This document shows, piece by piece, positions 6,801 to 38,987 of a DNA stretch of 64,000 nt. Position 1 is the first letter of the stretch; each line of letters opens with the position of its first letter. Below the pieces are notes generated by a model. That model saw nothing but the letters and a program-made list of their open reading frames with translations, had not been told where the DNA came from and ran no database searches. The translations under genes were made by a program, and so were the position numbers. The stretch is taken from NCBI GenBank assembly GCA_040755515.1, contig JBFMAW010000023.1:39383-103382 (forward strand), written 5' to 3'. Origin of the DNA: Thermodesulfobacteriota bacterium. Its GTDB lineage: Bacteria; Desulfobacterota; Desulfarculia; Adiutricales; JAGVGV01.

Positions 6801-7644
6801 CGGCGTCGGAAGGACTTCGCCTATCGTTCTTAAGTTGGGTGGCGAAACATTTCACCGCGACGCCGGGCAGGTGCGCCTTGATAAGGGGCCGGGCGTTGTT
6901 CATGTTTTCGATGAGCAGGGCTTCGTCGCCGCGCCAGAACCCGGTCAATCGTTGGTCCGGCGGCGCCGCGTTGAAAAAAGTATAGTCCATGTCCTCGGGG
7001 AAGTAAGGCCAGCGTTCCCTGAGCCATTTGGCGTCATATGTTCCCAGCTTACTCGATCTTTGCGGCCAGGTGATCTCGTACGGGCCGAAGCCGGCCGGAT
7101 TCGGCCGGTCCTCGGGCGAAGAGATCAAATGGCCGGGATCTTCCACGTTGGGCGCCAGGACCATAATTTCGCCCGAAGGCAGGCGGACGGGGTTGAGGCC
7201 CTTGCCCAGGGGGTTGCGCGGAAAGTCCGGACCGCCGAAAGCGTTGCGATAACCGACCTCGATGGCCTGAAACGGTTGGGGATCGCTCAGGGTCAGTAAA
7301 CCATTGGGACGGCGGCGCCAATGGCGACGGCCGAAGATGTAAAGACTCTTGTTGATGGGGCCGAGGCGCAAGGAAACTCTCAGGCCGGTAGTGGTCAGGC
7401 CGCCCGGAGCAAAGCACCGGCCCAGCATCAAAACTTCGCCTTGCGGCTTGGGCAGGCCTTGATCGAAGATGGTTTCCGCTCCCAGTTGGTCCTGAACGCA
7501 TGGCCATAGCTCCTGCTCCGGGAGCAGGTCGGCCGGCTCATTCAGATCGAAGAAGAGCAGGATCGAGACGGTCAGGTAGTATTTATCCGCCAGTCCGAAA
7601 TGATTGAGCAGCAGCGACTGGTCCTGTTCTTTTACCACTTCCAC
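3892..7644 (-). CDS. Giant DUF2169-domain protein fused to a coiled-coil linker and C-terminal pentapeptide-repeat domain
   Basis: 1250 aa. The N-terminal ~330 aa (…FPRNPLGKGLNPV…YDAKWLRERWPYFPEDMDYTFFNAAPPDQRL…) resembles DUF2169, a T6SS-associated adaptor-like domain. The middle ~550 aa is E/A/K/Q-rich with heptad character. The last ~340 aa are pentapeptide repeats (NLSGLDLSGLDLSGLDLKEAFL…ADLTAADLQGAEM…). Confidence 0.8.
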   Translation of the reverse strand: MEVVKEQDQSLLLNHFGLADKYYLTVSILLFFDLNEPADLLPEQELWPCVQDQLGAETIFDQGLPKPQGEVLMLGRCFAPGGLTTTGLRVSLRLGPINKSLYIFGRRHWRRRPNGLLTLSDPQPFQAIEVGYRNAFGGPDFPRNPLGKGLNPVRLPSGEIMVLAPNVEDPGHLISSPEDRPNPAGFGPYEITWPQRSSKLGTYDAKWLRERWPYFPEDMDYTFFNAAPPDQRLTGFWRGDEALLIENMNNARPLIKAHLPGVAVKCFATQLKNDRRSPSDAVFKEVKTNLDTVWLLPNAWRGVLIFRGVTEVADDEASDVRRLFLLTEKLHDPPRTLEEYLELEKERMKWPVPAVDMTPLEQAEKELAAARAELEKIPQLLDEALAEAAGRAPASTQPLSELTAGGAGQMTEAATRLAEARKRLVELKAEFGHLIKIDLSMLEEAQGELAAAAAAIQEVPGQVAQAQAEITQHQQEIKKAFQEQKKRLEARGIPTEGFEPDMLFEPKPDQLWREQGFRFVEDCRQRLQENQELMKILRSHGLSHQTIRRAWLGYNPVELSEPRSAWGLKEAWDDQGRPRNQRLPAGLVIPHFDGAILDRITIRTGDAVEAGTDFPVEGSKDLALTFISPRRPDVFLRVADELEAWLARQEASDLCSIIAAPDPSRKPAEETAKLIEPARAFLIAGPAWSEVQVDETLSAWLDVHPQAKILPLPVGRNLLEARRTGFDLRPWLLAALPPELSTQIEEELALIEKERQERKATQDFPLPDVQALDQKIRGSVDAALKPELENIAAMKKEMQAHFQQELKKFDEPLRKSGLNPDTILDRKEVALGDNPFDPAPMLASLGQAREKLKQVDRVDPEVWAKLDEAEGKIKRVTGAAAERYQAGMARIAEAESRPPVPDWALGQLKKAGIDVDDLEPLTREDVIERHKQGLSLAGKNLSGLDLSGLDLSGLDLKEAFLEKTVLAGSKLDGANLTEAVANEADFTGASLKGVRLDSGLFQQAKFTKAVLSGSSMTKALLKNADLTAADLQGAEMESALLEGAKLSDARLNDTKINGGSFLSSDLTGANLAGADISHGLFSEAALDKTDFSRAKARSAFFWQVKGREVNFTDTDMHNSRIGGGSEMPGADFSGADLSQACWRQAELHRADFRGARLEGSLIEECDLHQANLNRTQAKQTSFNKSDLSGGDLRGINLLNGSLRKTRLVDTDFSGANLYGVEFHRSVLGRTKLDGANLKMTKLHKRTDLLP

Positions 7645-7707
7645 GTTTATCGCCCTCCAAGGCCGATGCGCCGGGCCTCGTTGGTGATGGTGAAGAAGGC
7701 CTTGACT

Positions 7708-10700: not shown

Positions 10701-10749
10701 GCAGGGCCTGGGAGACAAAGGCGAATTTTTCTTCGGTGATGAACCTCAT
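7708..10749 (-). CDS. vgrG: T6SS spike protein VgrG with long collagen-like (Gly-X-Y) triple-helix extension, a globular C-terminal domain and a terminal coiled coil
   Basis: 1013 aa. Classic VgrG gp27/gp5 core (…[48 protein letters not shown]…). About 230 aa of uninterrupted GXY repeats follow ([25 protein letters not shown]…). Then a ~35-aa non-collagen spacer, a second GXY block ending in (GEK)5, a ~130-aa globular region, and a ~100-aa heptad-like C-terminus. Confidence 0.9.
8695..9072. repeat. Tandem 126-bp (42-aa, 14 GXY triplets) direct repeats inside the vgrG collagen-like region: two near-identical units at 8821-8946 and 8947-9072, plus a more diverged third copy upstream
   Basis: The string tgctccggcctcgcccttttcaccc… recurs at 8821 and 8947. 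The two units differ at only a handful of positions, and the encoded peptide …[32 protein letters not shown](A/T)[11 protein letters not shown]… is duplicated. A 9-bp (cccttttcg)n microsatellite encoding (GEK)5 lies at ~8385-8432. Confidence 0.8.
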
Positions 10750-10952
10750 GCTAAACCTCCCCCGCGGGTCAGGATTGAGGCGTTTGGGACGGAGAGCAGC
10801 CCCGGCCGAGGAGGGCCGGGCTGGCCGGAGTCAATAAGGCCGCCGCTTCGGAATGAGCGGTTTAAATCATGTAATCCTCCGGTACGGCGTCATTATAGGT
10901 GAATACCGGAAAAAATCAATCCGGAAGCAGAGGCCTGGTTCTCCGGTCAGGC

Positions 10953-18800: not shown

Positions 18801-20525
18801 ATGCGTAAAGCCGATAGAAAGCCGAAATTATTGAACATTGATCTCAATGTGGGCCGAACCGAGGCTGAACTAAAGTATTCGGTCAGCCCCCTCGGCAAAA
18901 GATTCAAGCTGCCCGAAGAAGAGGATTACCGCCTGGAATTCGACAGACTGGAGAGATTAGCCCGGGCTCACCGCCGCGAGGGCCGGGAAATAGTCGTGGT
19001 CCTGGGGTTGGGCTTTGTCGGGGCGGTCATGGCCGGAGTGGTGGCCGACTCGGTGGATGAAAAAACCGGCCGGCCCGGCAAGTTCGTGATTGGAATGCAG
19101 AGGCCCAGCCCGCGCAGCTACTGGAAGATACCGCTTTTAAACCAGGGCGTCTCGCCGGTCGAGGCCGAAGACCCGGAGGTGGCGGTCCTGATCGCCCGAT
19201 GCGTCGGGGAGAAGAAGACCCTGGCCGCCACTTACACCAGCGACGCCCTGAAACTGGCGGACGTGGTCATAGTGGACGTCCAATGCGACTTCCTCAAGCA
19301 GGACCTGGGCAATCTGCGGAGCGGCCACGCGGACATCAGCGCCCTTGAGGACAGCTTCAAGGTGATCGGCGAGAAGATCAATCCGGACTGCTTGGTCCTG
19401 ATCGAGACCACGGTTCCGCCGGGCGCCACGGAATACGTGGCTTATCCTCTCTTGAAGAAAGCCTTTCAAAAGAGAGGCCTGGCCGACGAGCCTCTTCTGG
19501 CGCACAGTTTCGAAAGGGTCATGCCCGGCCGGGAGTACGTGCGTTCGATTCGGGATTTCTGGCGGGTCTGCAGCGGTCTCAACGAAACCAGCCGGCAGAG
19601 GGTGGTGAAGTTCCTGTCCGAAGTCATCAACGTCAAGGAATATCCCTTGACCGTTCTGGACCGGCCCATCGAGAGCGAGACCTGCAAGATCGTGGAAAAC
19701 AGCTACCGGGCCACCATCCTGGCCTTTCTGCACGAATGGAGCCTTTTCGCCGAAACCAACGGCGTGGACTTGATCAAGGTGATCCAGGCCATCAAGGTCC
19801 GGCCCACCCACGACAACATCATCTTCCCGGGTCCGGGCATCGGCGGCTATTGTCTGCCCAAGGACGGCGGCTTGGGCCTGTGGGCCTACCGGCACCTGAT
19901 GGGCTTTGACCAGGATATCTTCCGCATCACGCCCGAGGCCATAAACGTGAACGACACCCGGGCCCTCCACGCGGCCCAATTGGTCCGGGACGCCCTCAGG
20001 AACATGGGGCGGATCGTGGCCGCCTCCCAGATCGCCGTGCTGGGCGTCTCCTATCGGGAGGACGTGGGCGACACCCGTTACAGCGGTTCGGAAGTATTGG
20101 TGCGCAAGCTGACCGAGATGGGGGCCGAGGTGAAGGCTCATGATCCCTACGTCAAGCACTGGTGGGAGCTGGAAAAGCAGGACTCCTATCCGGCCACGGG
20201 GCTCAGCTTGGCCCGTTTTTTCCGCAATCAGGAATTCCTGCGCGACTTTCACATGACCCCTGACCTGGCCGAGACTCTGCAAGGAGCGGATGCCGTGGTC
20301 CTGGCGGTCCGTCACGGCCAGTACCTGAATCTGTCCCCGGATGAAGTCGTACGAATGGCCGGAAATCCCCTGGCCGTGGTGGACTGTTTCGGCATCCTGG
20401 ACGACGGGCGGATTAAGAGATACCTGGAACTGGGCTGCGAAGTCAAGGGACTGGGTCGAGGCCATATAAAACGGATCAAGGATCAGATCGTTCGTCCGGC
20501 GACCGGTTCGGGGTCCGATGGATGA
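18801..20525 (+). CDS. Nucleotide-sugar dehydrogenase (UDP-glucose/GDP-mannose dehydrogenase superfamily; UDP-N-acetyl-hexosamine or UDP-glucose 6-dehydrogenase-like)
   Basis: N-terminal Rossmann motif VVVLGLGFVGAVMAG and catalytic-Cys motif PGPGIGGYCLPKD. It is long for the family at 574 aa. Confidence 0.8.
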   Translation: MRKADRKPKLLNIDLNVGRTEAELKYSVSPLGKRFKLPEEEDYRLEFDRLERLARAHRREGREIVVVLGLGFVGAVMAGVVADSVDEKTGRPGKFVIGMQRPSPRSYWKIPLLNQGVSPVEAEDPEVAVLIARCVGEKKTLAATYTSDALKLADVVIVDVQCDFLKQDLGNLRSGHADISALEDSFKVIGEKINPDCLVLIETTVPPGATEYVAYPLLKKAFQKRGLADEPLLAHSFERVMPGREYVRSIRDFWRVCSGLNETSRQRVVKFLSEVINVKEYPLTVLDRPIESETCKIVENSYRATILAFLHEWSLFAETNGVDLIKVIQAIKVRPTHDNIIFPGPGIGGYCLPKDGGLGLWAYRHLMGFDQDIFRITPEAINVNDTRALHAAQLVRDALRNMGRIVAASQIAVLGVSYREDVGDTRYSGSEVLVRKLTEMGAEVKAHDPYVKHWWELEKQDSYPATGLSLARFFRNQEFLRDFHMTPDLAETLQGADAVVLAVRHGQYLNLSPDEVVRMAGNPLAVVDCFGILDDGRIKRYLELGCEVKGLGRGHIKRIKDQIVRPATGSGSDG

Positions 20526-22137
20526 AGGTATGTCGGATCAGGAATTAAGCCTCCAGGATCTGAAAGACGCCTTACGGCGGCGTTGGCTCGGCTTTCTTAT
20601 CTGCGCCAGCCTGGTGGGTCTGGCCGCGATCATAATAGCCTTGGCCCTGCCGCCTATTTATCGGGCTAAGACCGTTATCCTTATCGAAGCTCAGCAGATA
20701 CCGCCAGAGTACATCAGGACTACCGTCACCAGCTACATCGATGAAAGGTTGAAAATAATCACTCAGCAAGTGATGAGCCGGACCAAACTGATGGAAATAA
20801 TCAACCAGTTCAAGCTGTATACCGACTTGACGGGACAGTACACCACCGATGAAATAATCGATAAAATGCGGGAGGACATTACCTTCACTACTATCAGTGC
20901 CGACGTTACCGGCAAGAAAGCCGACAAAGGCGACAGCGCCACCGTGGCCTTCATGGTGGCTTATGCCGGAAGCAACCCCACCACCGTGCAAAGGGTGACC
21001 AACGCGTTGGCGGCGCTGTATCTGCAAGAGAACACCCGCACCAGGGAAGCCCGGGCCGCCGGCGCCACCGAATTTCTGGAAAAAGAGCGCCGGAACATCA
21101 AGACCGAAATTGACGCCCTGGAACAGCGCATCAGCGATTTCAAGGCGGCCCACGCCGGCGAACTTCCGGAGTTCGCCCTGATAAATAACCAGACTCTAAA
21201 TAATCTCCGCCGGGACCTGGACCATGTAAACAGCCAGTTCAACATGCTCCAGGAAAGAATTGTATATCTTCAAGGACAGTTGTCCGGGGTGACTCCGGCC
21301 GCTCAAGTGCCGGTTTCAGGCGGCCGGGCCGCGACTGGTCCGGCCGAACGCTTGAAAACCCTGAGGATGCAACTCACTTCCTTGCGGGTCACTCATTCGG
21401 ATAAGCATCCGGATGTGATCAGAATAATGAATGAAATAAAACAACTGGAAGATCAGCTAGCGGCCGGGGGAGGCTCCGCGGGCGCGGCCTCCGGATATCG
21501 GATGCAGGAAAATCCGGCCTATATCAGCCTGAAGACTCAACTGGACTCGTCCAAGCTGGAACTGGCCAACCTGAACACGGAAAAGGCCAGGATCGTCGAA
21601 AAAATAGAATTATATGAAAAGCGGATACAAGTCGCGCCGGTGGTGGAGAAGGATTACAACAACCTGGTCAGAAGTTATGACATGGCCAAGTTGAGATACC
21701 GGGAGCTGACCAACAAGCTGATGGAAGCCCGCAGCGCCCAGGACCTGGAAGATGCTCAGAAAGGGGAAAGGTTTGTCATTGTCGAGCCGGCCACTGTCCC
21801 GCAAAAGCCGTACAAACCCAACCGTCTGGCCATACTCCTGGTCGGGTGTGTTCTGGCCCTGGGAACGGGCGCGGGCTTCGCCTTTCTCCGGGAAATGTTC
21901 GACCATTCGATCAAAAACCAGACCGAACTGGTGGCGCAGACCGGTTTGAATCTGCTTACCACGATCAGGTTTATAGAATCTTTCGAGGAGTTGAGGGCCA
22001 AGCGGCGCAGGAAGATAATAATCGCCTGCACCGCCTCGGTTTTTATTGTCGTCTGTCTGATCGCGGTTCATGTCTTCTATACCCCGCTGGACATCCTGTG
22101 GATAAGGGTTCAGAAACGGTTGATGCTGGGAGTATGA
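20518..22137 (+). CDS. Polysaccharide chain-length determinant protein (Wzz/GumC/EpsF-like, PCP family)
   Basis: N-terminal …LQDLKDALRRRWLGFLICASLVGLAAIIIALALPPIYRAKTVILIE… (TM1 plus Wzz motif), a long periplasmic coiled-coil region, and a C-terminal TM. Overlaps the dehydrogenase stop by 8 nt. Confidence 0.8.
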   Translation: MDEGMSDQELSLQDLKDALRRRWLGFLICASLVGLAAIIIALALPPIYRAKTVILIEAQQIPPEYIRTTVTSYIDERLKIITQQVMSRTKLMEIINQFKLYTDLTGQYTTDEIIDKMREDITFTTISADVTGKKADKGDSATVAFMVAYAGSNPTTVQRVTNALAALYLQENTRTREARAAGATEFLEKERRNIKTEIDALEQRISDFKAAHAGELPEFALINNQTLNNLRRDLDHVNSQFNMLQERIVYLQGQLSGVTPAAQVPVSGGRAATGPAERLKTLRMQLTSLRVTHSDKHPDVIRIMNEIKQLEDQLAAGGGSAGAASGYRMQENPAYISLKTQLDSSKLELANLNTEKARIVEKIELYEKRIQVAPVVEKDYNNLVRSYDMAKLRYRELTNKLMEARSAQDLEDAQKGERFVIVEPATVPQKPYKPNRLAILLVGCVLALGTGAGFAFLREMFDHSIKNQTELVAQTGLNLLTTIRFIESFEELRAKRRRKIIIACTASVFIVVCLIAVHVFYTPLDILWIRVQKRLMLGV

Positions 22138-22243: not shown

Positions 22244-23260
22244 ATGGACATATTGGTGACCGGAGCCGCGGGATTCATTGGCTTTCATCTTTCCAAGAGG
22301 TTGTTGGAAGATGGACACCGCGTCATCGGCGTGGACAACCTGAATGAGTACTACAGCGTTCAGTTGAAGAAGGATCGCTTGAACCTACTCACGAGTTTTG
22401 ACGCTTTTTCTTTCTTGCCTCTGGATATCGCCCAGCAGACGGGTATGGCCGATCTTTTCTCCAGATATCGTTTCGACCGAGTCGTCAATCTGGCGGCCCA
22501 GGCCGGAGTGAGACACAGCCTGACGCACCCCCATGATTACCTGGAAAGCAACATAACCGGCTTCATGAACGTCCTCGAGGGTTGCCGCCACTCGAAGACG
22601 CCGCATTTGATATTCGCTTCCAGCAGTTCGGTTTACGGCCTGAACACCAGCATGCCGTTTTCCGTGCATGACAACGTGGACCATCCGGTCAGCCTGTACG
22701 CGGCGACCAAGAAGGCCAACGAGCTCATGGCCCATGCTTACAGTCATCTATACGCCCTGCCGGTGACCGGCCTGAGGTTTTTCACGGTCTATGGTCCGTG
22801 GGGCCGGCCGGACATGGCGCTTTTTCTCTTCACCGAGGCGATTTTGAACGATCGGCCGATCAAGGTCTTCAATCAGGGACGAATGGTCCGGGATTTTACT
22901 TTCGTGGATGATATAATTGAAGGCGTGGTCAGGGTCATGGATGCTATTCCTGAAGGCAATCAGGACTGGTCCGGCGAGAGGCCGGATCCGGGTTCCAGCC
23001 CGGCCCCTTATCGGCTATATAATATAGGCAATCATAACCCGGTCAAACTTCTGGACTTTATCGAAGCGATCGAGAAGGCTCTAGGCAAGTCGTCCACCAA
23101 GGAACTTTTACCCATGCAACCAGGGGACATCCCGGCCAGTTTCGCGGACGTGGCCGACCTGGCCCGGGCGGTAGGTTTTAAACCAAATACTGACATTCAA
23201 GAAGGGGTGAAAAGGTTCGTGGCCTGGTATAGTAGCTATTACGGCGACACCAGGACTTGA
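22244..23260 (+). CDS. NAD-dependent epimerase/dehydratase, UDP-glucuronate 4-epimerase-like
   Basis: MDILVTGAAGFIGFHLSKRLLEDGHRVIGVDNLNEYYSVQLKKDRL… and the YAATKKANE (YxxxK) catalytic motif. Confidence 0.8.
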   Translation: MDILVTGAAGFIGFHLSKRLLEDGHRVIGVDNLNEYYSVQLKKDRLNLLTSFDAFSFLPLDIAQQTGMADLFSRYRFDRVVNLAAQAGVRHSLTHPHDYLESNITGFMNVLEGCRHSKTPHLIFASSSSVYGLNTSMPFSVHDNVDHPVSLYAATKKANELMAHAYSHLYALPVTGLRFFTVYGPWGRPDMALFLFTEAILNDRPIKVFNQGRMVRDFTFVDDIIEGVVRVMDAIPEGNQDWSGERPDPGSSPAPYRLYNIGNHNPVKLLDFIEAIEKALGKSSTKELLPMQPGDIPASFADVADLARAVGFKPNTDIQEGVKRFVAWYSSYYGDTRT

Positions 23261-23355: not shown

Positions 23356-25128
23356 ATGAACAAGAAAGTGTTTTTTATTGTATTGGCGCTTCTTATTATT
23401 TACCCCGCCGCCTCATGGGCCAGGGACTGGTATGTCCGGCCGGCCGGCGGCCAGTACGGAACACAAGACGGCACCAGCTATGACAACGCCTGGAACGGCC
23501 TGCACGCGATCAAATGGCTCGAGGGCGGCGTGCAGCCGGGCGACACCTTGTGGGTCTGCGGCCTGCATGTTTGGGATATGAAGACCAAGTCCTACATTGA
23601 CAAACAGGCGGTCATTCCAACGATCAACGGCGCGAGCGATACCCAGAGAATCATGATCCGGGGCGACTATTCTAACGATCCGGGCATTGTCTGGGGTGCG
23701 TACAGAATGAGCAGTTCTCCCTGGGTGGACGAGGGCGGAGGAGTGTGGAGTACCCTTCTTGCGGCCAATTCATTTCCTGAATGGTTCTTCCAGGATATCG
23801 GTAAACCAAAACCGGATTCCTATATTGTTCTGAACAGGCAAAAAAGCATTGACGGCGTCCGAGCCAATCCCGGGTCGTTTTACAGTGAAACCTATACCGC
23901 GGGTTCCAAGCTATACGTTAAAACTACTGACAGCCTGCCACCTCAAGGACGAATTTACGCTAACAGATACGGGTATAGATTCAACCTGGCGGATAATAAA
24001 TTTATAACTTTTTATAAGCTGAAAATGTTTAATTTCTTTCGTATATCCGGGATAAAACCCGTTTCCCCTCCCAGCAATATTACTTGGCAGGGCTGCACCC
24101 TGACTCATGGTGAACACAGTATCATATGGCTCTATGATGGCATGGATAATATGAAAGTCATTGACTGCGAACTGGCTTGGGCCGGAAACGGCATTTACAA
24201 CATCAGTAGTACTCTGGACAAAGCGGCCAGCAATTACCACTTCAAAGGTAATTATATCCATGACATGGGCGTCCGGGAAGCCACCCAGAACAACGATGGC
24301 CATTGCGTCGGGGCTCAAGGAGGGCGGAACGGAATCATAGAGGATAACGTTTGCGTAAACTGCGGTACCGGGCCATTGATTTACACTGGCGCCAGCCAGA
24401 TCGCCACCAACAACATTATCAGAAGGAACCTGGTCAAGGACCCGCATACGCTCGGCGGCGCCAATGGATACGGAATAGCTTTGCTGACCACCAACCTGAA
24501 TACTTCCGACAAGAGCGGCAATATAGTGGTCCAAAATATAGTCATCAACGCGAAGATAGCCTTCAGGTTTCATTGGGAACAGGTTCAACTCGTGGCTAAC
24601 AACGTGGCTTATAATTGCGAAATAGGCCTGGAGTCAAAGCGTAACTACAATGGTCTAGGGGCCAATGTCTATTTTGTCAATAACGTGTTTTTGAACACCA
24701 AGCAATATCACATCAACTGGGACACGGGCGCAAGTAATTTCGTTATATACGCCGACCGTAACATTTATTATCCGTCAACGGGTGCCATGTTCAGGTATAG
24801 GGGAAAGGACTATACTTGGGATGGTTGGCGCGCCTTGACCCGCCCGTCTTGCCTGTTTGACCCGAAGTCCTTCGCTTTGGACCCGAAATTTAAGAACATC
24901 ACGGGCAAGTTCACTGACGCTTTGGACTTCATGTTAAAAAGCGACTCGCCAGCCATTGGTACCGGACAGACGGTCCAGGTAATCACTAGTGATTTTGCCG
25001 GCGGGCCTATCCTGGGCACGCCGGATATCGGCGCTTTTCAGCATACCACGATTCCGCGGGGAGGTATTTCCGCCACTGCGCCAGGGTCGGGACCAATGCC
25101 TGCCCCAGGAGTGCCTGGCACTCCTTGA
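23356..25128 (+). CDS. Secreted right-handed beta-helix protein (possible polysaccharide lyase/depolymerase or EPS-modifying enzyme)
   Basis: Signal peptide MNKKVFFIVLALLIIYPAASWA. The region after the signal peptide (WYV…GG…G.S…) is typical of pectate-lyase-fold proteins, and Asn-rich beta-helix rungs are present (NNVAYNCE…NNVFLNTK). Confidence 0.6.
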   Translation: MNKKVFFIVLALLIIYPAASWARDWYVRPAGGQYGTQDGTSYDNAWNGLHAIKWLEGGVQPGDTLWVCGLHVWDMKTKSYIDKQAVIPTINGASDTQRIMIRGDYSNDPGIVWGAYRMSSSPWVDEGGGVWSTLLAANSFPEWFFQDIGKPKPDSYIVLNRQKSIDGVRANPGSFYSETYTAGSKLYVKTTDSLPPQGRIYANRYGYRFNLADNKFITFYKLKMFNFFRISGIKPVSPPSNITWQGCTLTHGEHSIIWLYDGMDNMKVIDCELAWAGNGIYNISSTLDKAASNYHFKGNYIHDMGVREATQNNDGHCVGAQGGRNGIIEDNVCVNCGTGPLIYTGASQIATNNIIRRNLVKDPHTLGGANGYGIALLTTNLNTSDKSGNIVVQNIVINAKIAFRFHWEQVQLVANNVAYNCEIGLESKRNYNGLGANVYFVNNVFLNTKQYHINWDTGASNFVIYADRNIYYPSTGAMFRYRGKDYTWDGWRALTRPSCLFDPKSFALDPKFKNITGKFTDALDFMLKSDSPAIGTGQTVQVITSDFAGGPILGTPDIGAFQHTTIPRGGISATAPGSGPMPAPGVPGTP

Positions 25129-25446
25129 GGCCTGAACCGTTGCCGAGAGGTGTAGTATAAAGCCGACGGCCGTGAGAGCGGTTCGGTACAGAGGAAGAGT
25201 TATTGGAATACGGAGTGGATCAGGCTGAATAAATTATTAATCTTTGTGCTTCTATATTGTGTAGGCATGGAATAGACTTAGTTCTTAAGAAATGGAAGCA
25301 GTTTCATCGGGGTCAAGGCCGAATCCTTAATCAACTTACGCCCCTTGACTCCGATTTTTATTTTGACCGGAAGCCACGAGGCCTCATGACCTTTATAGAG
25401 GCTAAATCAGCATAATTTCGCTCTTGAGGTAAATGGAGGTGGTGTT

Positions 25447-26589
25447 TTGGGGTATAATATTTTGGAAACCAAATCGTTTGTTACGGAAGAAAATGAAAGC
25501 GTGGTGACAATAAAATTTACTATTGATGCTAATGAGCATACTGTCTATTTTAAGAGTAAGCAGATCCGATTGCAGGATAGCGCGGAAGCTCTTCTGAATT
25601 TTTCAATTCTGCCAAATCTTTATGCTGGTAGTAATTTGAGATTGAATAGACCGATTAGCCGACGGTTATGTAATTCTACCAAGAAGATAATAGATATATT
25701 CTGTAAATGGAATCCAAAATATAACTACGTCGAAATTATTGATGCCGTCCCGGGTAGAACGGAAGATCAGGTTGAACGGAGAGTTGGAGTCTTTTTTTCC
25801 ACCGGGTTAGATTCGATATATACGCTGCTAAAGAATTTACATGAAATTACCGACATGATCTTCATTCATGGTTATGATTTGCGAATTAGCGAGATTGACT
25901 TGAGAAAAAAAACATCCGACATAATAGAACAGATTGGAAGAGAATTTAATAAAAATGTAATTCATGTAGAGACAAATTTAAAGGATGTGTTGGGACAATA
26001 TATCCCCTGGGCCAAGCTTTTACACGGAGCCGCGTTGACTACTATTGGACATATGATGTCACGGCATTTCAGGAAAATATTTATTTCGGCTAATCATACT
26101 TATGCTAATCTTCAACCAAATGGAGCTCATCCTATACTTGATCCCCTGTGGAGTACGGAATCTCTCGAGTTTGAGCATTTCGGCTGCGAGGCAGATAGAA
26201 TAGAGAAAGCTGCTTATATTGCTCAATTCGAAATTGCTTTAAATTCCCTGAGAGTTTGCTGGAAAAAAACAGGTGGGGCCTATAACTGCGGCGAATGCAA
26301 CAAGTGTCTTATTACAATGATTAACTTATATTTGGCAGGCGCATTAGATCGTTGTTCCACATTTGATAAGAAGATAAGTTATTGGAAAATGAAAATGGAA
26401 CTGAACTTCATGCCAGAGGGTTGGCGAGCATACGTAAGGCAAAACATAGATCATCTGGAAAAAACCAATAGTGATAAGAAAATGTTAAAAGCCTTAAGAA
26501 AGATATATAACAGAACTATTTGGGGGTGTTACTTTATAGCTGCTATCAAAAAGGCAGGCATGTTGTATGAAAAATACAAAAAAAGATAG
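25447..26589 (+). CDS. Uncharacterised enzyme-like protein, paralog A: PP-loop-like motif (…GVFFSTGLDS…) plus C-terminal Cys cluster (CWKKTGGAYNCGECNKC)
   Basis: 380 aa. The beta-strand-STGxDS-helix arrangement at ~aa 115 resembles the SGGxDS PP-loop of ATP pyrophosphatases (QueC/WbpG/LarE class) with Gly replaced by Thr. A CxxC-containing Cys cluster is present. TTG start with GGAGG 8 nt upstream. Confidence 0.55.
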   Translation: MGYNILETKSFVTEENESVVTIKFTIDANEHTVYFKSKQIRLQDSAEALLNFSILPNLYAGSNLRLNRPISRRLCNSTKKIIDIFCKWNPKYNYVEIIDAVPGRTEDQVERRVGVFFSTGLDSIYTLLKNLHEITDMIFIHGYDLRISEIDLRKKTSDIIEQIGREFNKNVIHVETNLKDVLGQYIPWAKLLHGAALTTIGHMMSRHFRKIFISANHTYANLQPNGAHPILDPLWSTESLEFEHFGCEADRIEKAAYIAQFEIALNSLRVCWKKTGGAYNCGECNKCLITMINLYLAGALDRCSTFDKKISYWKMKMELNFMPEGWRAYVRQNIDHLEKTNSDKKMLKALRKIYNRTIWGCYFIAAIKKAGMLYEKYKKR

Positions 26590-26639
26590 GAAAAGAAATA
26601 AAATTATACAAAAAAATCTATATATATGGATAGGCAAGA

Positions 26640-28247
26640 ATGAAAGATATTGAAGCACAGGATAACAATGGTGCATCAAACAGAAAGATAAGCGATAAAA
26701 TTAAGATAAGTAAATCGCTGATAATGATAAATTCCGGTAGTTTTATGTTAGCATTTTTGTTGAACATTACCGTCGTCGTTTGGCTACAGCAGTATTTACT
26801 AAAAAGAATTTCGGTGGATGAATATAGCATTTATCCTATAGTTGTTTCAATGATGGTCTTTATATCTTTATTAGAAACAATATTAGTCCCGAGTTTAGTT
26901 AGATATGCGATAGAAGCATTCGCCGTTGGTGATGAAAAGCGGTTAAATCAGGTGTTTTCAACCATGTTATCGCTAACATCCTTTTCCGGAATAGCGATAT
27001 TGTCGGGTGGGATTATATTTTCATGGTATATTGATAGCATTTTCAACATAGCTTCACATCTTGCTTGGGATGCGAGAATCATGATGGCCTTGTTGATTTT
27101 GAATATAAGCGCCGACATTATATTGTCCCCTTATAGAGTTGGATTGAATATACAACAGAAGTATTACCTTATGAATATAATTAAATCACTAGGAGAATTT
27201 TTTCGTTTATTAATTCTATTTGTTCTTTTATTTTCTATAAGCACTAGGATATTATGGGTAGTAGTAGCTACCATAATTAGCAATATAAGTGTTATATTAG
27301 CAAAAGTATACTATTCTCAAAAAGCGATGCCCGGGTTAAGATTTAACAAAAAGGATATTAGGGTCGACCTCTTAAAGAAAATGTTGAATTTTGGCGGTTG
27401 GAATTTCATGTATATGGCAGGCAGGACAATAAGAAATAATTCTGATGTAATAATACTAAACAAGTTTGCCACGGCTTATGATGTCAGCGCGTTTCATATT
27501 GGCAGATTGTTCCATAGATATGCACTTATGAGTTGGGAAATGATACGACTTTCAACTTTTCCTGCCCTGACGGCCATGCACTCTCTTAAAATGGAACAGA
27601 GTCTCAAAAACGCTTATCTACGTGGCGGCAGGTATGCTTTGTGGATAGTGCTTTTTATCGGCGCTCCCCTAGTTGCCTTTAGAGAGGAAGTTATTATATT
27701 ATATTTATCGGAAAAATTTGTAGTTTCAGCTCAAGTACTATTATATTTATTTTTAGCTCTTCCCGCTGAATTAAGCGATATAATGTTAAGTATCATTGCG
27801 AGAGCTAGAGGAAGAATGAAAGAGTTGGCGACGATATACTTGATTATGCAGATAGCAAATATCATACTTACGTTGTACCTTGTCATCGCCTTGAAATCAG
27901 GCTGCGTGGGTTCGGCATTCGGCACTTTCATAACGGCACTAATTTTTGAACCATTGTTTCTTTGGCCGATCGGATTGAAATTGGTAAATCTTTCTCTGAT
28001 GAGATTCATAAGAGAAACAGTCATTCCAGGTATTATACCGGCGTCAGCGGTGGGGTTGTTATATTATGTAATAAAGACACAATTTGAAGTATTAACATTT
28101 ACGCACATTATTGAATGGGTAGCCATCGGTAGTTTAGTTTATACTGGTGTTTTATTCGGATTCTGTTTACAAGCAAGCGATAAAAAAGATTTAGCGGAAG
28201 CTTATATGAAAATACGAGAGATGATATATAGAAAGTTAAGGAGGTGA
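26640..28247 (+). CDS. Oligosaccharide/polysaccharide flippase (Wzx-like, MOP superfamily)
   Basis: 535 aa with ~14 predicted TM helices; size and composition match Wzx/MurJ-type 'polysaccharide biosynthesis protein'. Sits in a glycan locus. Confidence 0.75.
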   Translation: MKDIEAQDNNGASNRKISDKIKISKSLIMINSGSFMLAFLLNITVVVWLQQYLLKRISVDEYSIYPIVVSMMVFISLLETILVPSLVRYAIEAFAVGDEKRLNQVFSTMLSLTSFSGIAILSGGIIFSWYIDSIFNIASHLAWDARIMMALLILNISADIILSPYRVGLNIQQKYYLMNIIKSLGEFFRLLILFVLLFSISTRILWVVVATIISNISVILAKVYYSQKAMPGLRFNKKDIRVDLLKKMLNFGGWNFMYMAGRTIRNNSDVIILNKFATAYDVSAFHIGRLFHRYALMSWEMIRLSTFPALTAMHSLKMEQSLKNAYLRGGRYALWIVLFIGAPLVAFREEVIILYLSEKFVVSAQVLLYLFLALPAELSDIMLSIIARARGRMKELATIYLIMQIANIILTLYLVIALKSGCVGSAFGTFITALIFEPLFLWPIGLKLVNLSLMRFIRETVIPGIIPASAVGLLYYVIKTQFEVLTFTHIIEWVAIGSLVYTGVLFGFCLQASDKKDLAEAYMKIREMIYRKLRR

Positions 28248-29413
28248 ATGCCTTGAGTTTCAATGTTCAGAATGTTAGGACGTTCACCACGCAAGAAGGC
28301 GCCAATGAGGTTGCGCTTGACCTTAACATTGAAAAAGAGATACATCACATTTATTTTAGAAGTGAGAATATAACTCTATTTGATTGCCCAGAGGCTGAAG
28401 TCGCACTCTCCCTACTTTGGCACTTAAAATTCGGAATAGACTTGTCGGTTGATAGATGTGTAAGCAAGCGTTTCCTGGATTCAATGGAACGAGTGATGGA
28501 TATTTATAACACCTGGGATCGCAGCTTAAATCGTATCCGGATAAATACAAAAGAAACCTGCATAAAAGAGAATATAGGATCTGGTAGAGTCGGTTTATTC
28601 TTTTCTACCGGAATAGATTCCTTGTTTACTTTATTGAAGAATCTTGATGAGATCAATGATTTAATTTTTATCCATGGATTTGACTTACGATTAGACGAAA
28701 TTGAATTGAGAAATAAGACTTCTGATATTATAGAAAATATAGGTAAAGAATTCAAGAAAAACGTGATACATATAGAAACCAATTTCCGAGAACGACTTGG
28801 AGATCACTTCTCGTGGGCCAAAATTATGCACGGAGTTACCCTGGCGACGGTGGGACATTTAATATCTCGACACTATAAAAAGATATACATTTCCGCGAAT
28901 CACACTTACGCAAATCTACACCCGGCTGGGGCTCATCCTATCCTTGATCCGCTATGGAGCACCGAATCAACTGAATTCGTTCATTATGGCTGCCAGGCAG
29001 ATAGAATTGAAAAGGCGGCGTTAATCGCGCAATATCCTACGGCCTTAAATTCAATCCGAGTATGCTGGAAAAAAACCGGTGGAGCCTATAATTGCGGAGA
29101 GTGTAACAAATGCGTAAACGCCATGACAAACTTATATTTGGCTGGAGCCTTAGATCATTGTTCCACTTTTAGTAATAAAATAAATTATCGAAAAATGAAA
29201 ATGGCCTTAAACTTTTTAACGGAAGGTGGAAAAGCTTTTGTAATGCAAAATATTTCATATATAGAACGAAACAACGGTGATAAAAAATTGTTGAAAGCTT
29301 TAAAAAAGATACACGATAGACCTTTGTGGAAATGCTATTTTATAGCGGCGATAAAAAAGACAAATATGATTTATGAAACAATGTTAAAAAGAAAGAATAT
29401 AGATCTTAGATAA
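28244..29413 (+). CDS. Uncharacterised enzyme-like protein, paralog B (~70% identical to paralog A over the C-terminal ~270 aa; divergent N-terminal ~110 aa)
   Basis: …VGLFFSTGIDSLFTLLKNLDEINDLIFIHGFDLR…ISANHTYANL…GAHPILDPLWSTES…RVCWKKTGGAYNCGECNKC… aligns colinearly with paralog A. The start overlaps the wzx stop. Confidence 0.55.
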   Translation: MNALSFNVQNVRTFTTQEGANEVALDLNIEKEIHHIYFRSENITLFDCPEAEVALSLLWHLKFGIDLSVDRCVSKRFLDSMERVMDIYNTWDRSLNRIRINTKETCIKENIGSGRVGLFFSTGIDSLFTLLKNLDEINDLIFIHGFDLRLDEIELRNKTSDIIENIGKEFKKNVIHIETNFRERLGDHFSWAKIMHGVTLATVGHLISRHYKKIYISANHTYANLHPAGAHPILDPLWSTESTEFVHYGCQADRIEKAALIAQYPTALNSIRVCWKKTGGAYNCGECNKCVNAMTNLYLAGALDHCSTFSNKINYRKMKMALNFLTEGGKAFVMQNISYIERNNGDKKLLKALKKIHDRPLWKCYFIAAIKKTNMIYETMLKRKNIDLR

Positions 29414-29692
29414 AATATTTATGGAAATAAAGTTCTCCAAAAAAATCAATTCGATTACGAGGCCAATATTTTCGTATATTAAGATCAAGTTCAACATAAA
29501 TATTGGATTAGAAAATGAAACATTTATAGAGAAGTTTAAAGGTAACGAATATGAATAAATGAGGATGTTACATGTAATCGGTAAAGATAACGGTTTCATA
29601 GCTATGTAAAAAGCATTATACAGTATAAACATGAAAAAAATATTGAATAAATCGCGCGAGAGAATATTTTTATAAACAAGAGGAATGGTATT

Positions 29693-31123
29693 TTGACCGG
29701 ACACGACCGGAACCTGGAAGCGTTCATATCTCCACGATCGGTGGCGGTCATAGGCGCCACCGAAAGACCTGGCTCCTGGGGATCGTTCATCATGTTAGGC
29801 CTGAAGTCCCTGGATTATAACGGAGATATATTCCCAGTGAATACGAGCGCCAGCGAAATTTATGGCCTACCAGCGTACAAAGACATACGGGAAATAAGCG
29901 GACCCGTGGATCTGGCCGTGCTAGCCATTCCAGAAGAATATGTAGAGACGGCTATAGAAGCCTGCGGTCAAAAAGGCGTTAAAGGAATAACGATTATCAC
30001 GGCAGGGTACGGAGAGGAATCTGAAGAAGGAAGGGAGCGGCAACGACATCTGGCCCGATTGGCCGCCTTAAATGACCTGCGCGTTCTTGGTCCAAACGTG
30101 AGCGGCACGTTCAATCTTCACGCCGGCTTCAATGCCTCCTCGACGCCAGGCCATGATCTTCTGGCCACGCCGGTCGCGGCCGTATGTCAGGGCGGGTACG
30201 CCTTCTACGACATGCTTTCGGTGGGCGGAGAGCAAGGCTACGGCGTGGGTTGGTTCATCCACACCGGGAACGAAGCTGACCTGACCATCACGGATTTTCT
30301 GGAGCACTTCGGCCGAAAGGACGAGGTCAAGGCAGTGGTCATGTACATCGAGACCGTTCGGGACGGACAGCACTTTCTGGACGCGGCCAGGGCCGCGGCG
30401 GCGAAAAAGCCGGTGCTGGTATATAAAGCCGGCCGCACGGCCGGTTCGGCCCGAGCCGCCCGCAGTCATACAGGCGCCCTGGCCGGTAACAAAGACATAT
30501 ACCAGGGACTGTTCAGGCAGACCGGCCTGGTCATGTGTCCAACCATGGAACTGCTGTTGCCCGCGGCTCATGCCCTGATCGAACGTCCAGCCATGCGCGG
30601 ACGGCGAGTGGGCATCATCACCGTGGGCGGATCGTGGGGCGTATCCCTGACCGACGCCCTGGAGGAAACCGGGCTGCTGGTCCCCGAATTCAGCCCCGGG
30701 TTGCAAGAAACCTTGCGGGAGAAGGGATTGCCGGAGCGGGCTTCGGTAAGGAATCCCGTGGATTTCGGAGCATCGGGTCTGTTCCTGTCCCAGGACACGC
30801 CGGGTCTCCTGGCCCGGGAAATCCTGGCTTCCGGCGAAGTGGACGCCCTGGTGGCGCACGGCCTCGGCCGGCCGGGACTACATGATCGGAACACGCCGGA
30901 CGAATGGAAGTTGTTCCTGGAGATCGAAAAGAACCAGGTGAGGAGCCTGGCCGCCCTGGAGAAAGAGTTCGATCTGCCGGTCCTGATAGGCAGTTATTAC
31001 CACCCCTGGCAAAGCCAGGCGGTCAGCGACCTGAACAAGGAAGGATATAGAATTTATAATCGCCTGGTGGAGACGGCGCAAATATTGTTGATGATGAGCG
31101 AGTACTGGAGCCGGCGCCGTTGA
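29693..31123 (+). CDS. CoA-binding acyl-CoA synthetase (NDP-forming)-like protein / acetate-CoA ligase alpha-domain family
   Basis: …PRSVAVIGATERPGSWGSFIM…GDIFPVN… (CoA-binding Rossmann, succinyl-CoA-synthetase alpha-like) and …VKAVVMYIETVRDGQHFLDAARAAAAKKPVLVYKAGRTAGSARAARSHTGALAG… (ligase-CoA domain). Confidence 0.7.
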   Translation: MTGHDRNLEAFISPRSVAVIGATERPGSWGSFIMLGLKSLDYNGDIFPVNTSASEIYGLPAYKDIREISGPVDLAVLAIPEEYVETAIEACGQKGVKGITIITAGYGEESEEGRERQRHLARLAALNDLRVLGPNVSGTFNLHAGFNASSTPGHDLLATPVAAVCQGGYAFYDMLSVGGEQGYGVGWFIHTGNEADLTITDFLEHFGRKDEVKAVVMYIETVRDGQHFLDAARAAAAKKPVLVYKAGRTAGSARAARSHTGALAGNKDIYQGLFRQTGLVMCPTMELLLPAAHALIERPAMRGRRVGIITVGGSWGVSLTDALEETGLLVPEFSPGLQETLREKGLPERASVRNPVDFGASGLFLSQDTPGLLAREILASGEVDALVAHGLGRPGLHDRNTPDEWKLFLEIEKNQVRSLAALEKEFDLPVLIGSYYHPWQSQAVSDLNKEGYRIYNRLVETAQILLMMSEYWSRRR

Positions 31124-36217: not shown

Positions 36218-36502
36218 TTGAGAATGATTCAATTCCTGGTTCACGAACAGGCCGACTCGGTGGGCGTGGCGACGGTGGACATCAAGGCCGGCGAAACCGT
36301 TCGGGGCCTTTTCATGGACAACCAGACGCCCATTGAAATCAAGGCCCTCGACGACATCCCCCTGGGGCACAAGATCGCTCTCAAGGATCACGCCGCGGGC
36401 GAGGCGGTTATCAAATACGGACATGACATCGGTCGGGTCGTTCAGCCTATTAAAAAGGCGGAACACGTCCACATTCACAATTTGAAAACCAAAAGGTGGT
36501 AG
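36218..36502 (+). CDS. UxaA-family dehydratase small subunit (SAF domain; altronate/galactarate dehydratase N-terminal part)
   Basis: 94 aa …[12 protein letters not shown]…[37 protein letters not shown]… SAF-domain pattern. Overlaps the large-subunit start. Confidence 0.75.
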
Positions 36503-37668
36503 CCATGAAGAATTACCAAGTCCAGGGATATCGTCGCGAGAACGGGCGGGTGGGTATCCGCAACCATGTGGTCATCCTGCCTTTGGACGACCTGTCCAAC
36601 GCGGCCTGCGAGGCCGTGGCCAACAACATAAAGGGAACCAGGGCCATACCCCATGCCTACGGCCGGCTGCAGTTCGGCGAAGACTTGAAGCTGTTCTTTC
36701 GCACCATCATCGGCACCGGCGCCAATCCCAACGTGGCCGCCTGCGTGGTGATCGGGATCGAGCCGGAGTGGACCAACCTCGTGGTGGAAGGCATAGCCCG
36801 GACGGGCAAGCCGGTCACCGGTTTTGCCATCGAACGCGCGGGCGACCTGGCCACCATCGCCGCCGCTTCCCAAAAGGCCAAGGAATACGTTCAATGGGCT
36901 TCCGAACTCAGGCGGGCAGAATGCGAGCTCAGGGATATCTGGGTATCGGTCAAATGCGGCGAATCGGACACCACCTCGGGGCTGGCCTCCAACCCCACCG
37001 TGGGCAACGCCATTGACAAGCTGGTGGAACTAGGCGCGACCTGTTCCTTCGGCGAGACTTCCGAGATAACCGGCGCGGAAATGGTCTGCCGGGAAAGGGC
37101 GGCCAACAAGGAGATCGGCGACCGGTTCTATAAAGTCTGGTCCGACTACAACGACTTTATCAACGCCAACAAGACCGATGACCTGTCCGGCTCGCAGCCG
37201 ACCAAGGGCAACATCCGGGGCGGGCTGACCACCATCGAGGAAAAGGCTTTCGGCAATCTGCAGAAAATAGGGAAGAAGGCCCGCTACGTCGGCGTGTTGG
37301 AGCCGGCCGAGGCGCCGGCCGGGCCGGGCCTCTGGTTCATGGACACTTCCTCGGCGGCGGCCGAAGCGGTCACGCTCTGGGCCGCGGCCGGCTTCGTGGC
37401 CCATTTCTTCCCCACCGGCCAGGGCAACATCATCGGTAATCCCATCGAACCGGTAATAAAGCTCTCGGCCAACCCCTTGACCGTCAGGACCATGCGGGAG
37501 CACATTGATTTTGACTGCTCGGCCATCCTGCGAGGAGAGATGACCCTGGATCAAGCCGGCGATGGCCTGCTGGACATGCTGGTCAGGACCGGCAACGGCC
37601 GTCTGACCGCCAACGAGGTCTTGGGGCACTTCGAGTTCGTACTGACCAAACTCTACCGCAGCGCCTGA
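36496..37668 (+). CDS. UxaA-family sugar-acid dehydratase large subunit (D-galactarate/altronate dehydratase-like)
   Basis: …[32 protein letters not shown]…[14 protein letters not shown]…[23 protein letters not shown]…[16 protein letters not shown]… UxaA C-domain motifs. Confidence 0.8.
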
Positions 37669-37715
37669 TCGCCGGCGGTCCCAACCCCGCGGCCTTTTTC
37701 AGGGCCGCGGGGCTT

Positions 37716-38987
37716 TCAGTCGCCATTTCCTTCGGCCCGATAGAAATAGGTGGTGTTGGCGTTGGGCACCACGGCCACCCGGGGCCGGCCCGGCCGCTCA
37801 GCCAGCCAGCGGTCCAGGGTCTCCTGGGCCGGCCGCGGCGCCAGATAACAGCGCCGCAGGTCTTCGGCGGACATCTCCGACTCGATCGCCACCTCGTACC
37901 GGCTCAAGGTCCGGCCAAAAAGATAGGCTTTGTGAGCCCCCATCCTGAAGCCGCCCCTTCTAAAGTCTTCCATGGCTTCCCGGCAGGAATCGAAGCGGCT
38001 GACGTAATCGAAATAAACCTGGTCCCCGACGCCCTGGTCGCAGGAGGCCAGCAGCAATATTCCGCCGCCCGGCTTGACGGCCCGGGAGGCCAGGTTGAGC
38101 CCTTTTTGAGCCTGATATAAACAGATGTCCTTGGGATATCCCCCGCAGGAAGCCACAGCCAGGTCATACTGTTCCGAGATGGCCACGCCGTAAACCCTGG
38201 CGCAGGTTTGAGCCCCCCGCCGGAGCACGGCCATTGGTTCGCCGGCCCAGAGTCCCACCGCCCTTTTGTCCGGATCCAGGACCACGTTTACTGCCAGGTC
38301 CACGCCGGCCAGACGGCCGATGTCGTTCAGGTCTTCCCGGACGGGGTTGCCGTCCAGCCGGCCGGCTTCGGCGCCGTCCTGGAACATCAGACTATGGTTG
38401 TGTTCGATGGTCGCCGGCGAAGCGCAACCGATGGCCACGCCTTTGGCTCCGCCGGTGAAGCCCACGAACTGATGGGGGTCAATCTGGCCGATAACCATCT
38501 TCAAGTCGGCCTGGGAATATTCGGTGTTGATCGCCACCGGTGTTCCCCGGCTGGTGCGCCCGAGGTCGGTCAAGGGCGAAAGGTGGGGATCGTGGATCAC
38601 CATCCGGCATTCCAGAGACACTTCCGGAGGAACCCAGAGCCGGGCTCGATCTGAACCCATCCGCGGATGGAGCCCGCCGCCTATGATAATGCTGATGTCC
38701 TCCGGCTCTAAGTTCGAATAAGCGTTGAAGAGGCGCCGCAGAACGACCGGTAGGATTGCTTTAAAGGGAACCGGTCGGCTTTCATCGGGTAGGGCGATAG
38801 CCACGCGTCGGGGCGGCGGTCGATCTTCCAACCTGGCGGCCTCGAGAGGTGAATCGAGGGCCTGCTTTACGGCATGTTCGAGGTCCGTCAGGGTTGGGTG
38901 GGGAGAAGGGGCCAGAAAGACGATCTCGGCCCGATCCGGAAGGCTCAGGGTTTTGTATCCTTGTCCATATTTTAGCTTTATCTCCAT
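37716..38987 (-). CDS. LarA-like (lactate racemase family / DUF2088) protein; candidate Ni-pincer-dependent alpha-hydroxy-acid racemase or epimerase
   Basis: 423 aa; the N-terminal domain pattern (…RRVAIALPDESRPVP…IIIGGGLHP…) and overall length match the LarA family, from memory of the family. Confidence 0.6.
   Translation of the reverse strand: MEIKLKYGQGYKTLSLPDRAEIVFLAPSPHPTLTDLEHAVKQALDSPLEAARLEDRPPPRRVAIALPDESRPVPFKAILPVVLRRLFNAYSNLEPEDISIIIGGGLHPRMGSDRARLWVPPEVSLECRMVIHDPHLSPLTDLGRTSRGTPVAINTEYSQADLKMVIGQIDPHQFVGFTGGAKGVAIGCASPATIEHNHSLMFQDGAEAGRLDGNPVREDLNDIGRLAGVDLAVNVVLDPDKRAVGLWAGEPMAVLRRGAQTCARVYGVAISEQYDLAVASCGGYPKDICLYQAQKGLNLASRAVKPGGGILLLASCDQGVGDQVYFDYVSRFDSCREAMEDFRRGGFRMGAHKAYLFGRTLSRYEVAIESEMSAEDLRRCYLAPRPAQETLDRWLAERPGRPRVAVVPNANTTYFYRAEGNGD

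Follow-up and report, generated by a model that had tools for sequence, protein, structure and literature searches.

QueC-like PP-loop paralogs flanking a divergent flippase in an AT-rich cassette of a Thermodesulfobacteriota bacterium: candidate ATP-dependent modifiers of surface-polysaccharide sugars

What do two related proteins of no named family do when their genes flank a flippase gene inside a segment of sharply different base composition? The question is raised by a stretch of 64,000 nucleotides (hereafter the window) from JBFMAW010000023.1, a 110-kb contig of a Thermodesulfobacteriota metagenome-assembled genome (MAG). An AT-rich segment of the window, 4.5 kb long, carries three genes on the plus strand, which encode paralog A (380 residues, 25447..26589), a putative flippase (535 residues, 26640..28247) and paralog B (389 residues, 28244..29413). 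A and B are annotated in the source as hypothetical proteins, with NCBI calls of 375 (P0002) and 386 (P0001) residues, respectively. From the predicted structure and the motifs presented here, both are probably cytoplasmic PP-loop ATP pyrophosphatases whose core resembles that of QueC, and they belong to a large family whose genes lie next to pyruvyl transferase genes far more often than other neighbouring genes do. The favoured reading, to which a probability of about 0.5 is given, is that A and B would use ATP to adenylate a carboxyl group of a sugar and then form an amide, before the sugar unit is flipped across the membrane.

The motifs of A and B are those expected of such enzymes. The PP-loop is STGLDS in A (residues 118-123; 25798..25815, plus strand) and STGIDS in B (residues 121-126; 28604..28621, plus strand). 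Both proteins also contain the identical four-cysteine motif CWKKTGGAYNCGECNKC, which reads C271-x9-C281-x2-C284-x2-C287 in A (26257..26307, plus strand) and C274-x9-C284-x2-C287-x2-C290 in B (29063..29113, plus strand); all four positions were checked by translation. An earlier sequence-only reading of this DNA, made without database searches, had noticed the STGxDS loop, its glycine-to-threonine change and the cysteine cluster, and each of these observations is upheld. Motif counts were taken over 124 open reading frames (ORFs) of the family. The family consensus at the loop is the canonical FFSGGVDSFY, with S-G-G-V-D-S at the loop columns; the glycine at the third position is present in 123 of the 124 sequences, the aspartate in 122 and the serine in 117. 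Threonine at the second position occurs in 2 of 124, the two window copies. The four cysteines of C-x9-C-x2-C-x2-C, together with R254 and G145, are invariant (124/124). The four-cysteine site lies at the C-terminal end of the core and probably binds zinc.

The predicted structure agrees with the motifs. An AlphaFold2 model of B (mean predicted local distance difference test score, 92.7) has the Rossmann-like alpha/beta fold common to QueC, TilS, LarE and NAD synthetase, and the loop is positioned after the strand at residues 115-119 and before the helix at residues 124-132. A Foldseek search with the model returned QatC as the top match (E values of 8e-6 and 4e-5, probability 1.0, 395-398 aligned columns), followed by weak matches to PP-loop enzymes. 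A and B share a three-part layout consisting of an N-terminal domain of ~110 residues, the core and a C-terminal helical extension, and neither has a signal peptide. A structural search with the isolated N-terminal domain gave no significant relative. Searches against the Pfam, NCBIfam and PADLOC models gave no match for A or B, and the sole NCBIfam trace at E<=1 was to asn_synth (asparagine synthase), with an E value of 0.15, over the PP-loop region. A profile search of the PDB likewise gave nothing significant. For the QueC family itself (PF06508), A and B have no match, and the best of 49 homologs scored 17.7 bits (E 0.0026) against a gathering score of 22 bits; the weak PF06508 matches, found in 8 of the 49 homologs, lie at the PP-loop (profile positions 4-66) and at the zinc motif (profile positions 182-207). 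A glycosyltransferase identity for A or B was unsupported by any search. The assignment of the two proteins to a PP-loop-like family without a recognised name is therefore sustained, given that no curated model names them and that Foldseek finds QatC and other PP-loop enzymes.

The family is large and its members elsewhere have a characteristic setting. A word-indexed search found 118 homolog clusters, in none of which the domain has a functional name or is covered by a Pfam domain. An exhaustive search with the family profile gave 9,892 representatives (clustered at 50% identity) at E<=0.001, 5,387 of which had E<=1e-30; paralog A itself has a hidden Markov model score of 482 against the family profile. 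Species-representative genomes gave at least 575 matches across many phyla, and the hosts of cultured members include Pseudomonas neustonica, Aliagarivorans, Thauera, Williamsia, Rhodococcus opacus, Kineococcus and Aquisalinus. ORFs were called and clustered in 87 loci, the window and 86 others, with a neighbourhood of 6 kb. An ORF resembling PF04230-type pyruvyl transferases is present in 46 of the 87 loci and is directly adjacent to a family gene in 33, where the stop and start codons often overlap. Of the 97 immediate neighbours 32 are pyruvyl transferases, whereas among the remaining conserved ORFs within 6 kb they number 7 of 476 (odds ratio 33; Fisher p 1e-20, a value that overstates the evidence because the loci are not phylogenetically independent). 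In four cases the two are fused in one chain (L029, L053, P0124 and P0122, the last in the order family, pyruvyl transferase, family). The link between this family and pyruvyl transferases is strong and previously unreported; literature searches found no relevant account that connects a PP-loop or QueC-like enzyme with pyruvyl transferases or with polysaccharides.

Other neighbours point in the same direction. Glycosyltransferases are found in 42 of the 87 loci, and further recurrent neighbours are ATP-binding cassette ATPases, epimerases, Wzx, glycosyltransferases of families GT9 and GT25, WaaP-like kinases, AsnB-like proteins (about 8 cases in the same loci) and carbamoyltransferase. A recognised glycan gene lies within 6 kb in at least 59 of the 87 loci. 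A role in modifying the sugar unit, put forward from the sequence alone and here placed before flipping, fits the gene context both here and in those loci. Among species genomes, a Pirellulales pair comes closest to A and B; its two genes lie in a Wzy-type locus that also has two pyruvyl transferases. Additional fusions join the family domain to a FemAB-like aminoacyl-transferase (P0070, P0249), a GT2 glycosyltransferase (P0123) or a class A beta-lactamase-like domain (P0180), the FemAB fusions being a hint of amino-acid chemistry.

The presence of two copies in the window has parallels elsewhere in the family. Between 2 and 9 family copies occur in 25 of the 87 loci, and the best match of a copy is its locus mate in 32 of 60 cases, indicating repeated local duplication. 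Five single chains (P0119, P0121, P0123, P0124 and P0127) contain two complete copies, each with the loop and the four cysteines. Duplication in pairs or larger sets is a habit of the whole family and not a local accident. Recurrent pairing and the existence of double-copy proteins suggest that the enzymes work as dimers. Four Pseudomonas-type loci, three from Pseudomonas and one from an unclassified gammaproteobacterial MAG, contain old orthologous pairs that are 65-67% identical between species and 37-45% identical within a pair. In these loci (L057 at 7089-12058, L042, L076 and L085) a pyruvyl-transferase-like gene lies between or after the two copies; the order in L057 is methyltransferase, family copy, GT2, family copy, pyruvyl transferase. 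The gene clusters of the WaaP-like kinase, GT9 and carbamoyltransferase also have members in these loci. The way in which family copies and other genes are interleaved there mirrors the copy-flippase-copy order of the window. Larger arrays are nine tandem copies, 44-51% mutually identical, in a Melioribacteraceae MAG (L043, 1522-12562) and five copies in a Ktedonobacterales MAG (L052, 477-11197).

The duplication behind A and B is old. Their alignment is gap-free from end to end, at 57% identity (E 4e-164), with 28% identity over residues 1-110 and 70% over residues 111-380. The sequence-only reading had described ~70% identity over some 270 C-terminal residues, which is borne out, and unrelated N-termini, which are not: the N-terminal domains align gap-free and share positions conserved across the family (L57, S74 and W91). 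The same reading took the duplication to be recent. Nucleotide identity between the two genes is only 63%, third positions at conserved residues match at 0.48, and synonymous divergence (dS) is saturated, being undefined by the NG86 method and 1.57 by LWL85. The saturated synonymous sites rule out a recent duplication. Nonsynonymous divergence (dN) amounts to 0.18-0.20 for the core, compared with 0.71 for the N-terminal domain, which has evolved ~3.6 times faster. The core is under purifying selection, given its low dN beside saturated dS. The 27 nucleotides that follow the stop codon of A (26595-26621) are 85% identical to 27 nucleotides after that of B (29424-29450), indicating either that the duplicated unit ran past the coding region or that a shared 3' signal has been conserved.

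What reaction would such proteins catalyse? In the QueC family ATP activates a carboxylate, which is then attacked by ammonia or by a protein amine (PMC13279940). The intact loop, the QueC-like metal site, purifying selection, the cytoplasmic location and the coupling to pyruvyl transferases together point to an ATP-dependent carboxylate-amine ligase whose substrate would be a sugar unit linked to a lipid or a nucleotide. In the proposed sequence of events, ATP would bind on the S-x-G-x-D-S loop, a carboxyl group would be adenylated with release of pyrophosphate, and ammonia or an amine would attack the acyl-adenylate to yield an amide. The carboxyl group would most likely be carried by a surface-polysaccharide sugar unit, modified at the cytoplasmic face and then exported by the flippase. 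For much of the family, it is probably the carboxyl group installed by the adjacent or fused pyruvyl transferase. Since the window lacks a pyruvyl transferase, the target of A and B is more likely a uronic acid, made with the dehydrogenase and epimerase encoded upstream, or else a pyruvyl group added by the product of a gene outside the window. Bacterial glycans are known to contain uronic acid amides formed with NH2 or with amino acids (PMC10609480). A and B could act as a heterodimer or on different positions or amines, and the fast-evolving N-terminal domains would set specificity.

Several observations weigh against this reading. The homology to QueC is not significant by sequence (a comparison of the family profile with Escherichia coli QueC by hhalign gave a probability of 9%, with the PP-loop alone aligned), so the assignment rests on predicted structure. 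The aspartate of the H-D-G motif (residue 248) is present in 109 of the 124 family sequences and is tyrosine or phenylalanine in both window copies. The threonine in the loop and the aromatic residue at H-D-G mean that A and B may not share the substrate, or even the activity, of most family members. When residue 248 was tried as a marker of coupling to a pyruvyl transferase, the rates were 2 of 15 and 37 of 109, too few cases for a firm contrast. Neither a pyruvyl transferase nor a glycosyltransferase was found among the window ORFs scanned, and no gene for an amine donor is consistently linked to the family. A recognised glycan gene is missing within 6 kb in 28 of the 87 loci, including some that hold closer relatives of A and B. 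Among these are L009, L010 and L012 of Sulfuricurvum, as well as L001 and L002, in which the family gene follows genes for a succinate dehydrogenase/fumarate reductase-like flavoprotein, iron-sulfur (Fe-S) and CCG-domain proteins, or lies near GDSL-like and major facilitator superfamily genes. Finally, no example of an amidated pyruvate ketal was found in the literature searched, and a review of pyruvylated glycans (PMC6801904) mentions none.

The same fold and the same adenylation could instead lead to a different second step, either the insertion of sulfur, as in the LarE-like formation of a thiocarboxylate with an Fe-S cluster held by the cysteines, or the conversion of an amide to a nitrile, as with QueC and ArtA. 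This alternative is quite unlikely. Sulfur insertion is disfavoured by the invariance across the family of four cysteines with QueC spacing and by the presence of the family in Pseudomonas, Rhodococcus and Williamsia, which are aerobic genera. In addition, the recurrent neighbours include no sulfur-carrier genes, and the Fe-S-dependent LarE has three cysteines and no QueC motif (PMC13329287).

Amide formation on a sugar carboxylate, the reading preferred here, can be extended to a more ambitious proposal for the family as a whole. Its members would use ATP to turn the carboxyl groups of pyruvate ketals, and those of uronic acids in cassettes such as the present one, into amides, amino-acid conjugates or nitriles, with the duplicate copies acting as obligate hetero- or pseudo-dimers beside the pyruvyl transferase. 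This glycan modification would be an undescribed one and, following nucleoside synthesis and phage defence, the third recruitment of QueC chemistry, one that edits the charge of the bacterial cell surface in many phyla. In that full form the proposal is tentative and rather doubtful.

Where did the paralogs of the window come from? The base composition changes abruptly at about 25.13 and 29.70 kb, as originally described. In 500-bp windows the guanine-plus-cytosine (GC) content is 0.31-0.41 over 25,500-29,999 and 0.47-0.65 on both sides. In 100-bp windows it falls from 0.61 (25,100-25,199) to 0.34 (25,200-25,299) at the left edge and rises from 0.28 (29,600-29,699) to 0.58 (29,700-29,799) at the right. 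Overall, 25,130-29,692 is 36.0% GC, compared with 58.5% for the remainder of the window. The earlier count of exactly three genes in this segment, all on the plus strand, also holds, and their GC content at third codon positions (GC3) is 0.356-0.370 compared with 0.606-0.818 in 22 other window genes. The gene for A, which begins with TTG at 25447 and has a GGAGG 6 nucleotides ahead of it, is preceded by the left edge of the segment and a spacer (25130..25446) in which the frequency of promoter-like sites does not exceed that of shuffled sequence; promoter and terminator scans were at chance level. The GTG start of the gene for B overlaps the flippase stop codon. After B comes a spacer with a GC content of 0.262 that forms the right edge (29414..29692), and a reverse ORF of 106 codons in this 26% GC spacer (29384-29704) looks spurious. 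The next gene, for the alpha subunit of an ADP-forming acetate-CoA ligase, begins at 29,700, where the GC content rises.

The composition argues that the cassette is probably foreign DNA, in keeping with the origin originally proposed for it. In 47 other genomes the GC content of family genes is a median of 2.5 points lower than that of the distal flanks, the largest deficit being 10.4 points, whereas the difference here is 22 points. Given that A and B both have the rare loop threonine, an aromatic residue at position 248 and equal GC content, they were already paired in the donor, and the cassette probably came in as one unit. The best database relative of B is only 46% identical. When metagenomes were scanned with the flanking acetate-CoA ligase gene, only two useful relatives were found, at 71% and 60% identity, and their upstream genes are unrelated to those of the window. 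A recent transfer would be denied if the low GC content were instead a long-resident property of variable polysaccharide genes, as O-antigen loci commonly have AT-rich wzx/wzy regions, or if the contig were an assembly chimera, the sequence being derived from a metagenome. No integrase, transposase, tRNA or flanking direct repeat was found around the segment, an absence that the sequence-only reading had already noted for transposases and that favours these alternatives, as does the intermediate GC3 (0.61-0.68) of the genes at 20.5-25.1 kb. However, a GC3 of 0.36 beside 0.68-0.82 indicates no amelioration, and the family genes of the 47 other genomes differ little from their flanks. Both junctions of the segment lie in intergenic spacers of one contig, with the genes on either side intact, a pattern not expected from one chimeric join. 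Long residence or chimerism is therefore unlikely.

The middle gene of the cassette was called a Wzx flippase from its sequence, and this identification stands with a qualification. It has no Pfam match at E<=1, including to Polysacc_synt, Polysacc_synt_3 and MurJ, and its match to the multidrug and toxic compound extrusion (MATE) model TIGR00797 has an E value of 0.004. Its product has hydrophobic segments throughout. A flippase profile was built from a cluster of nine ORFs located near family members elsewhere, whose scanned representative is positive for Polysacc_synt_3 (PF13440); the middle gene aligns to this profile over 406 columns (hhalign probability 97%, E 1e-10; hmmsearch E 8e-14). 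It thus appears to encode a divergent Wzx-type flippase of the multidrug/oligosaccharidyl-lipid/polysaccharide (MOP) superfamily.

The placement of the cassette inside an exopolysaccharide locus is only partly correct. Pfam matches identify a Ugd-like nucleotide-sugar dehydrogenase (18801-20525), a Wzz/GNVR chain-length protein (20518-22137) and an NAD-dependent epimerase (22244-23260) on the plus strand upstream, and the dehydrogenase and epimerase may constitute a uronic-acid precursor pathway. Wzy, like the glycosyltransferases and pyruvyl transferases mentioned above, was absent among the ORFs scanned in the 64-kb window. Given so few glycan genes near A and B, the locus is best described as a small cluster. 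A protein of 590 residues encoded immediately before the cassette (23356-25128, plus strand) has a signal-peptide-like start and no Pfam family, with a sub-threshold choice-of-anchor Q match at residues 522-562. The GC3 of its gene is 0.61 and that of the two preceding genes is 0.67-0.68, at or just below the bottom of the range of the others (0.68-0.82), and the whole stretch from 20.5 to 25.1 kb may be older foreign DNA.

Some genes farther from the cassette deserve mention. On the minus strand, a VgrG-like protein with Phage_GPD and Phage_base_V domains and collagen triple-helix repeats (7708-10749) lies beside a 1,250-residue protein with DUF2169 and pentapeptide repeats (3892-7644) and a further pentapeptide-repeat protein (2852-3895). 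Judged by these domains, the region 2852-10749 resembles a cluster for a type VI secretion spike and its effectors. At 36496-38987 a LarA-like gene (lactate racemase family) adjoins galactarate/altronate dehydratase-like and TctA/TctC transporter genes. An ORF of 847 codons at 48298-50841 (plus strand) has no Pfam match.

Taken by itself the window is of modest interest, as an old paralog pair with a flippase in a foreign cassette. The family is of wider interest. QueC-type enzymes were recently found to act beyond queuosine synthesis, in nucleobase-protein conjugation in the cyclic-oligonucleotide-based antiphage signalling system (CBASS) and with a role in QatABCD. The present family would be a third and much larger QueC-type branch, with ~9,900 clusters in many phyla, tied to surface polysaccharides and pyruvyl transferases. 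Most of the enzymes that attach amides or amino acids to acidic sugars have yet to be assigned, and the family provides a defined candidate. Neutralisation of carboxylates alters surface charge, antigenicity and phage receptors. If the pyruvyl transferase link mirrors the substrate, the product would be new chemistry. The question can be addressed in cultured hosts, including Pseudomonas neustonica, Aliagarivorans marinus, a Thauera sp., Williamsia muralis and Rhodococcus opacus.

How do A and B compare with known systems? QueC has two hallmarks, an SGGxDS loop at one end of the domain and a C(x)8CxxCxxC zinc motif at the other (PMC13329287). The four cysteines of the family match this motif except that the first spacer is one residue longer. 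Other QueC motifs (PMC13329287) differ, as YxQxHxxE, VPxRN and YPDC are replaced in the family by HGFD, ETNxR, GSHPLLDPLWST and HDGC. Unlike QueC, the family has an additional N-terminal domain and C-terminal helices, and its neighbours are glycan genes rather than queuosine genes. DUF6395 (PF19932), a domain of no known function that was absent from the literature searched, gave weak matches in 11 of 49 homologs over the cysteine cluster and the helices that follow. The best of these scored 24.4 bits (E 3e-5); all are below the gathering score of 25 bits and cover part of a 174-position model, and A and B have no match.

QatC consists of a QueC core with an N-terminal domain and C-terminal helices (PMC13279940), a three-part layout that A and B appear to have as well. 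The match of the B model to QatC has an identity of 12% and a template-modelling score of only 0.42-0.46, and the N-terminal domain, as noted, found no significant structural relative. As QatC is the best full-length structural match and has seemingly similar extensions, A and B could modify a protein in the manner of QatC or of Cap9 from type IV CBASS. They would then conjugate a small molecule bearing a carboxyl group to an amine of a protein, with a part in phage defence or signalling. The tandem arrays of up to nine copies and the foreign composition likewise recall defence islands. However, A and B have no PADLOC match and no QatA, QatB, QatD or cGAS/DncV-like nucleotidyltransferase (CD-NTase) neighbours, and their context indicates glycan rather than protein substrates. 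Protein modification is, on this evidence, highly improbable.

The nearest idea offered by the sequence-only reading was the WbpG/WbuX type of N-acetyl-sugar amidotransferase, which makes acetamidino sugars. These enzymes require imidazole-glycerol-phosphate-synthase-like partners. The absence of HisH/HisF partners noted earlier is confirmed, as none was found among the window ORFs scanned. WbpG and WbuX (TIGR03573; cluster 5 of the QueC superfamily) are PP-loop enzymes of 300-400 residues from surface-polysaccharide loci, including O-antigen loci, and the family consensus SGGVDSFY fits the SGGxDSxY loop of the WbpG cluster (PMC13329287). In spite of this resemblance and the common polysaccharide context, neither A nor B matches TIGR03573 at E<=1, and the cysteine motifs differ in type and position. 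The WbpG motif is CxxC(x)6CxC, in reverse order relative to the P-loop and on its opposite side (PMC13329287), whereas that of A and B is C-terminal with QueC spacing. It is very unlikely that A and B are WbpG/WbuX-type enzymes, and the nearest known proteins are QueC, Cap9 and QatC.

The closest systems in terms of outcome are the AsnB/WbpS-type and ATP-grasp amidoligases, which amidate uronic acids in O-antigens and capsules. They belong to other families, A and B having neither a glutaminase domain nor an ATP-grasp fold, yet the result proposed for A and B would be the same, the conversion of a sugar carboxylate to an amide with ATP.

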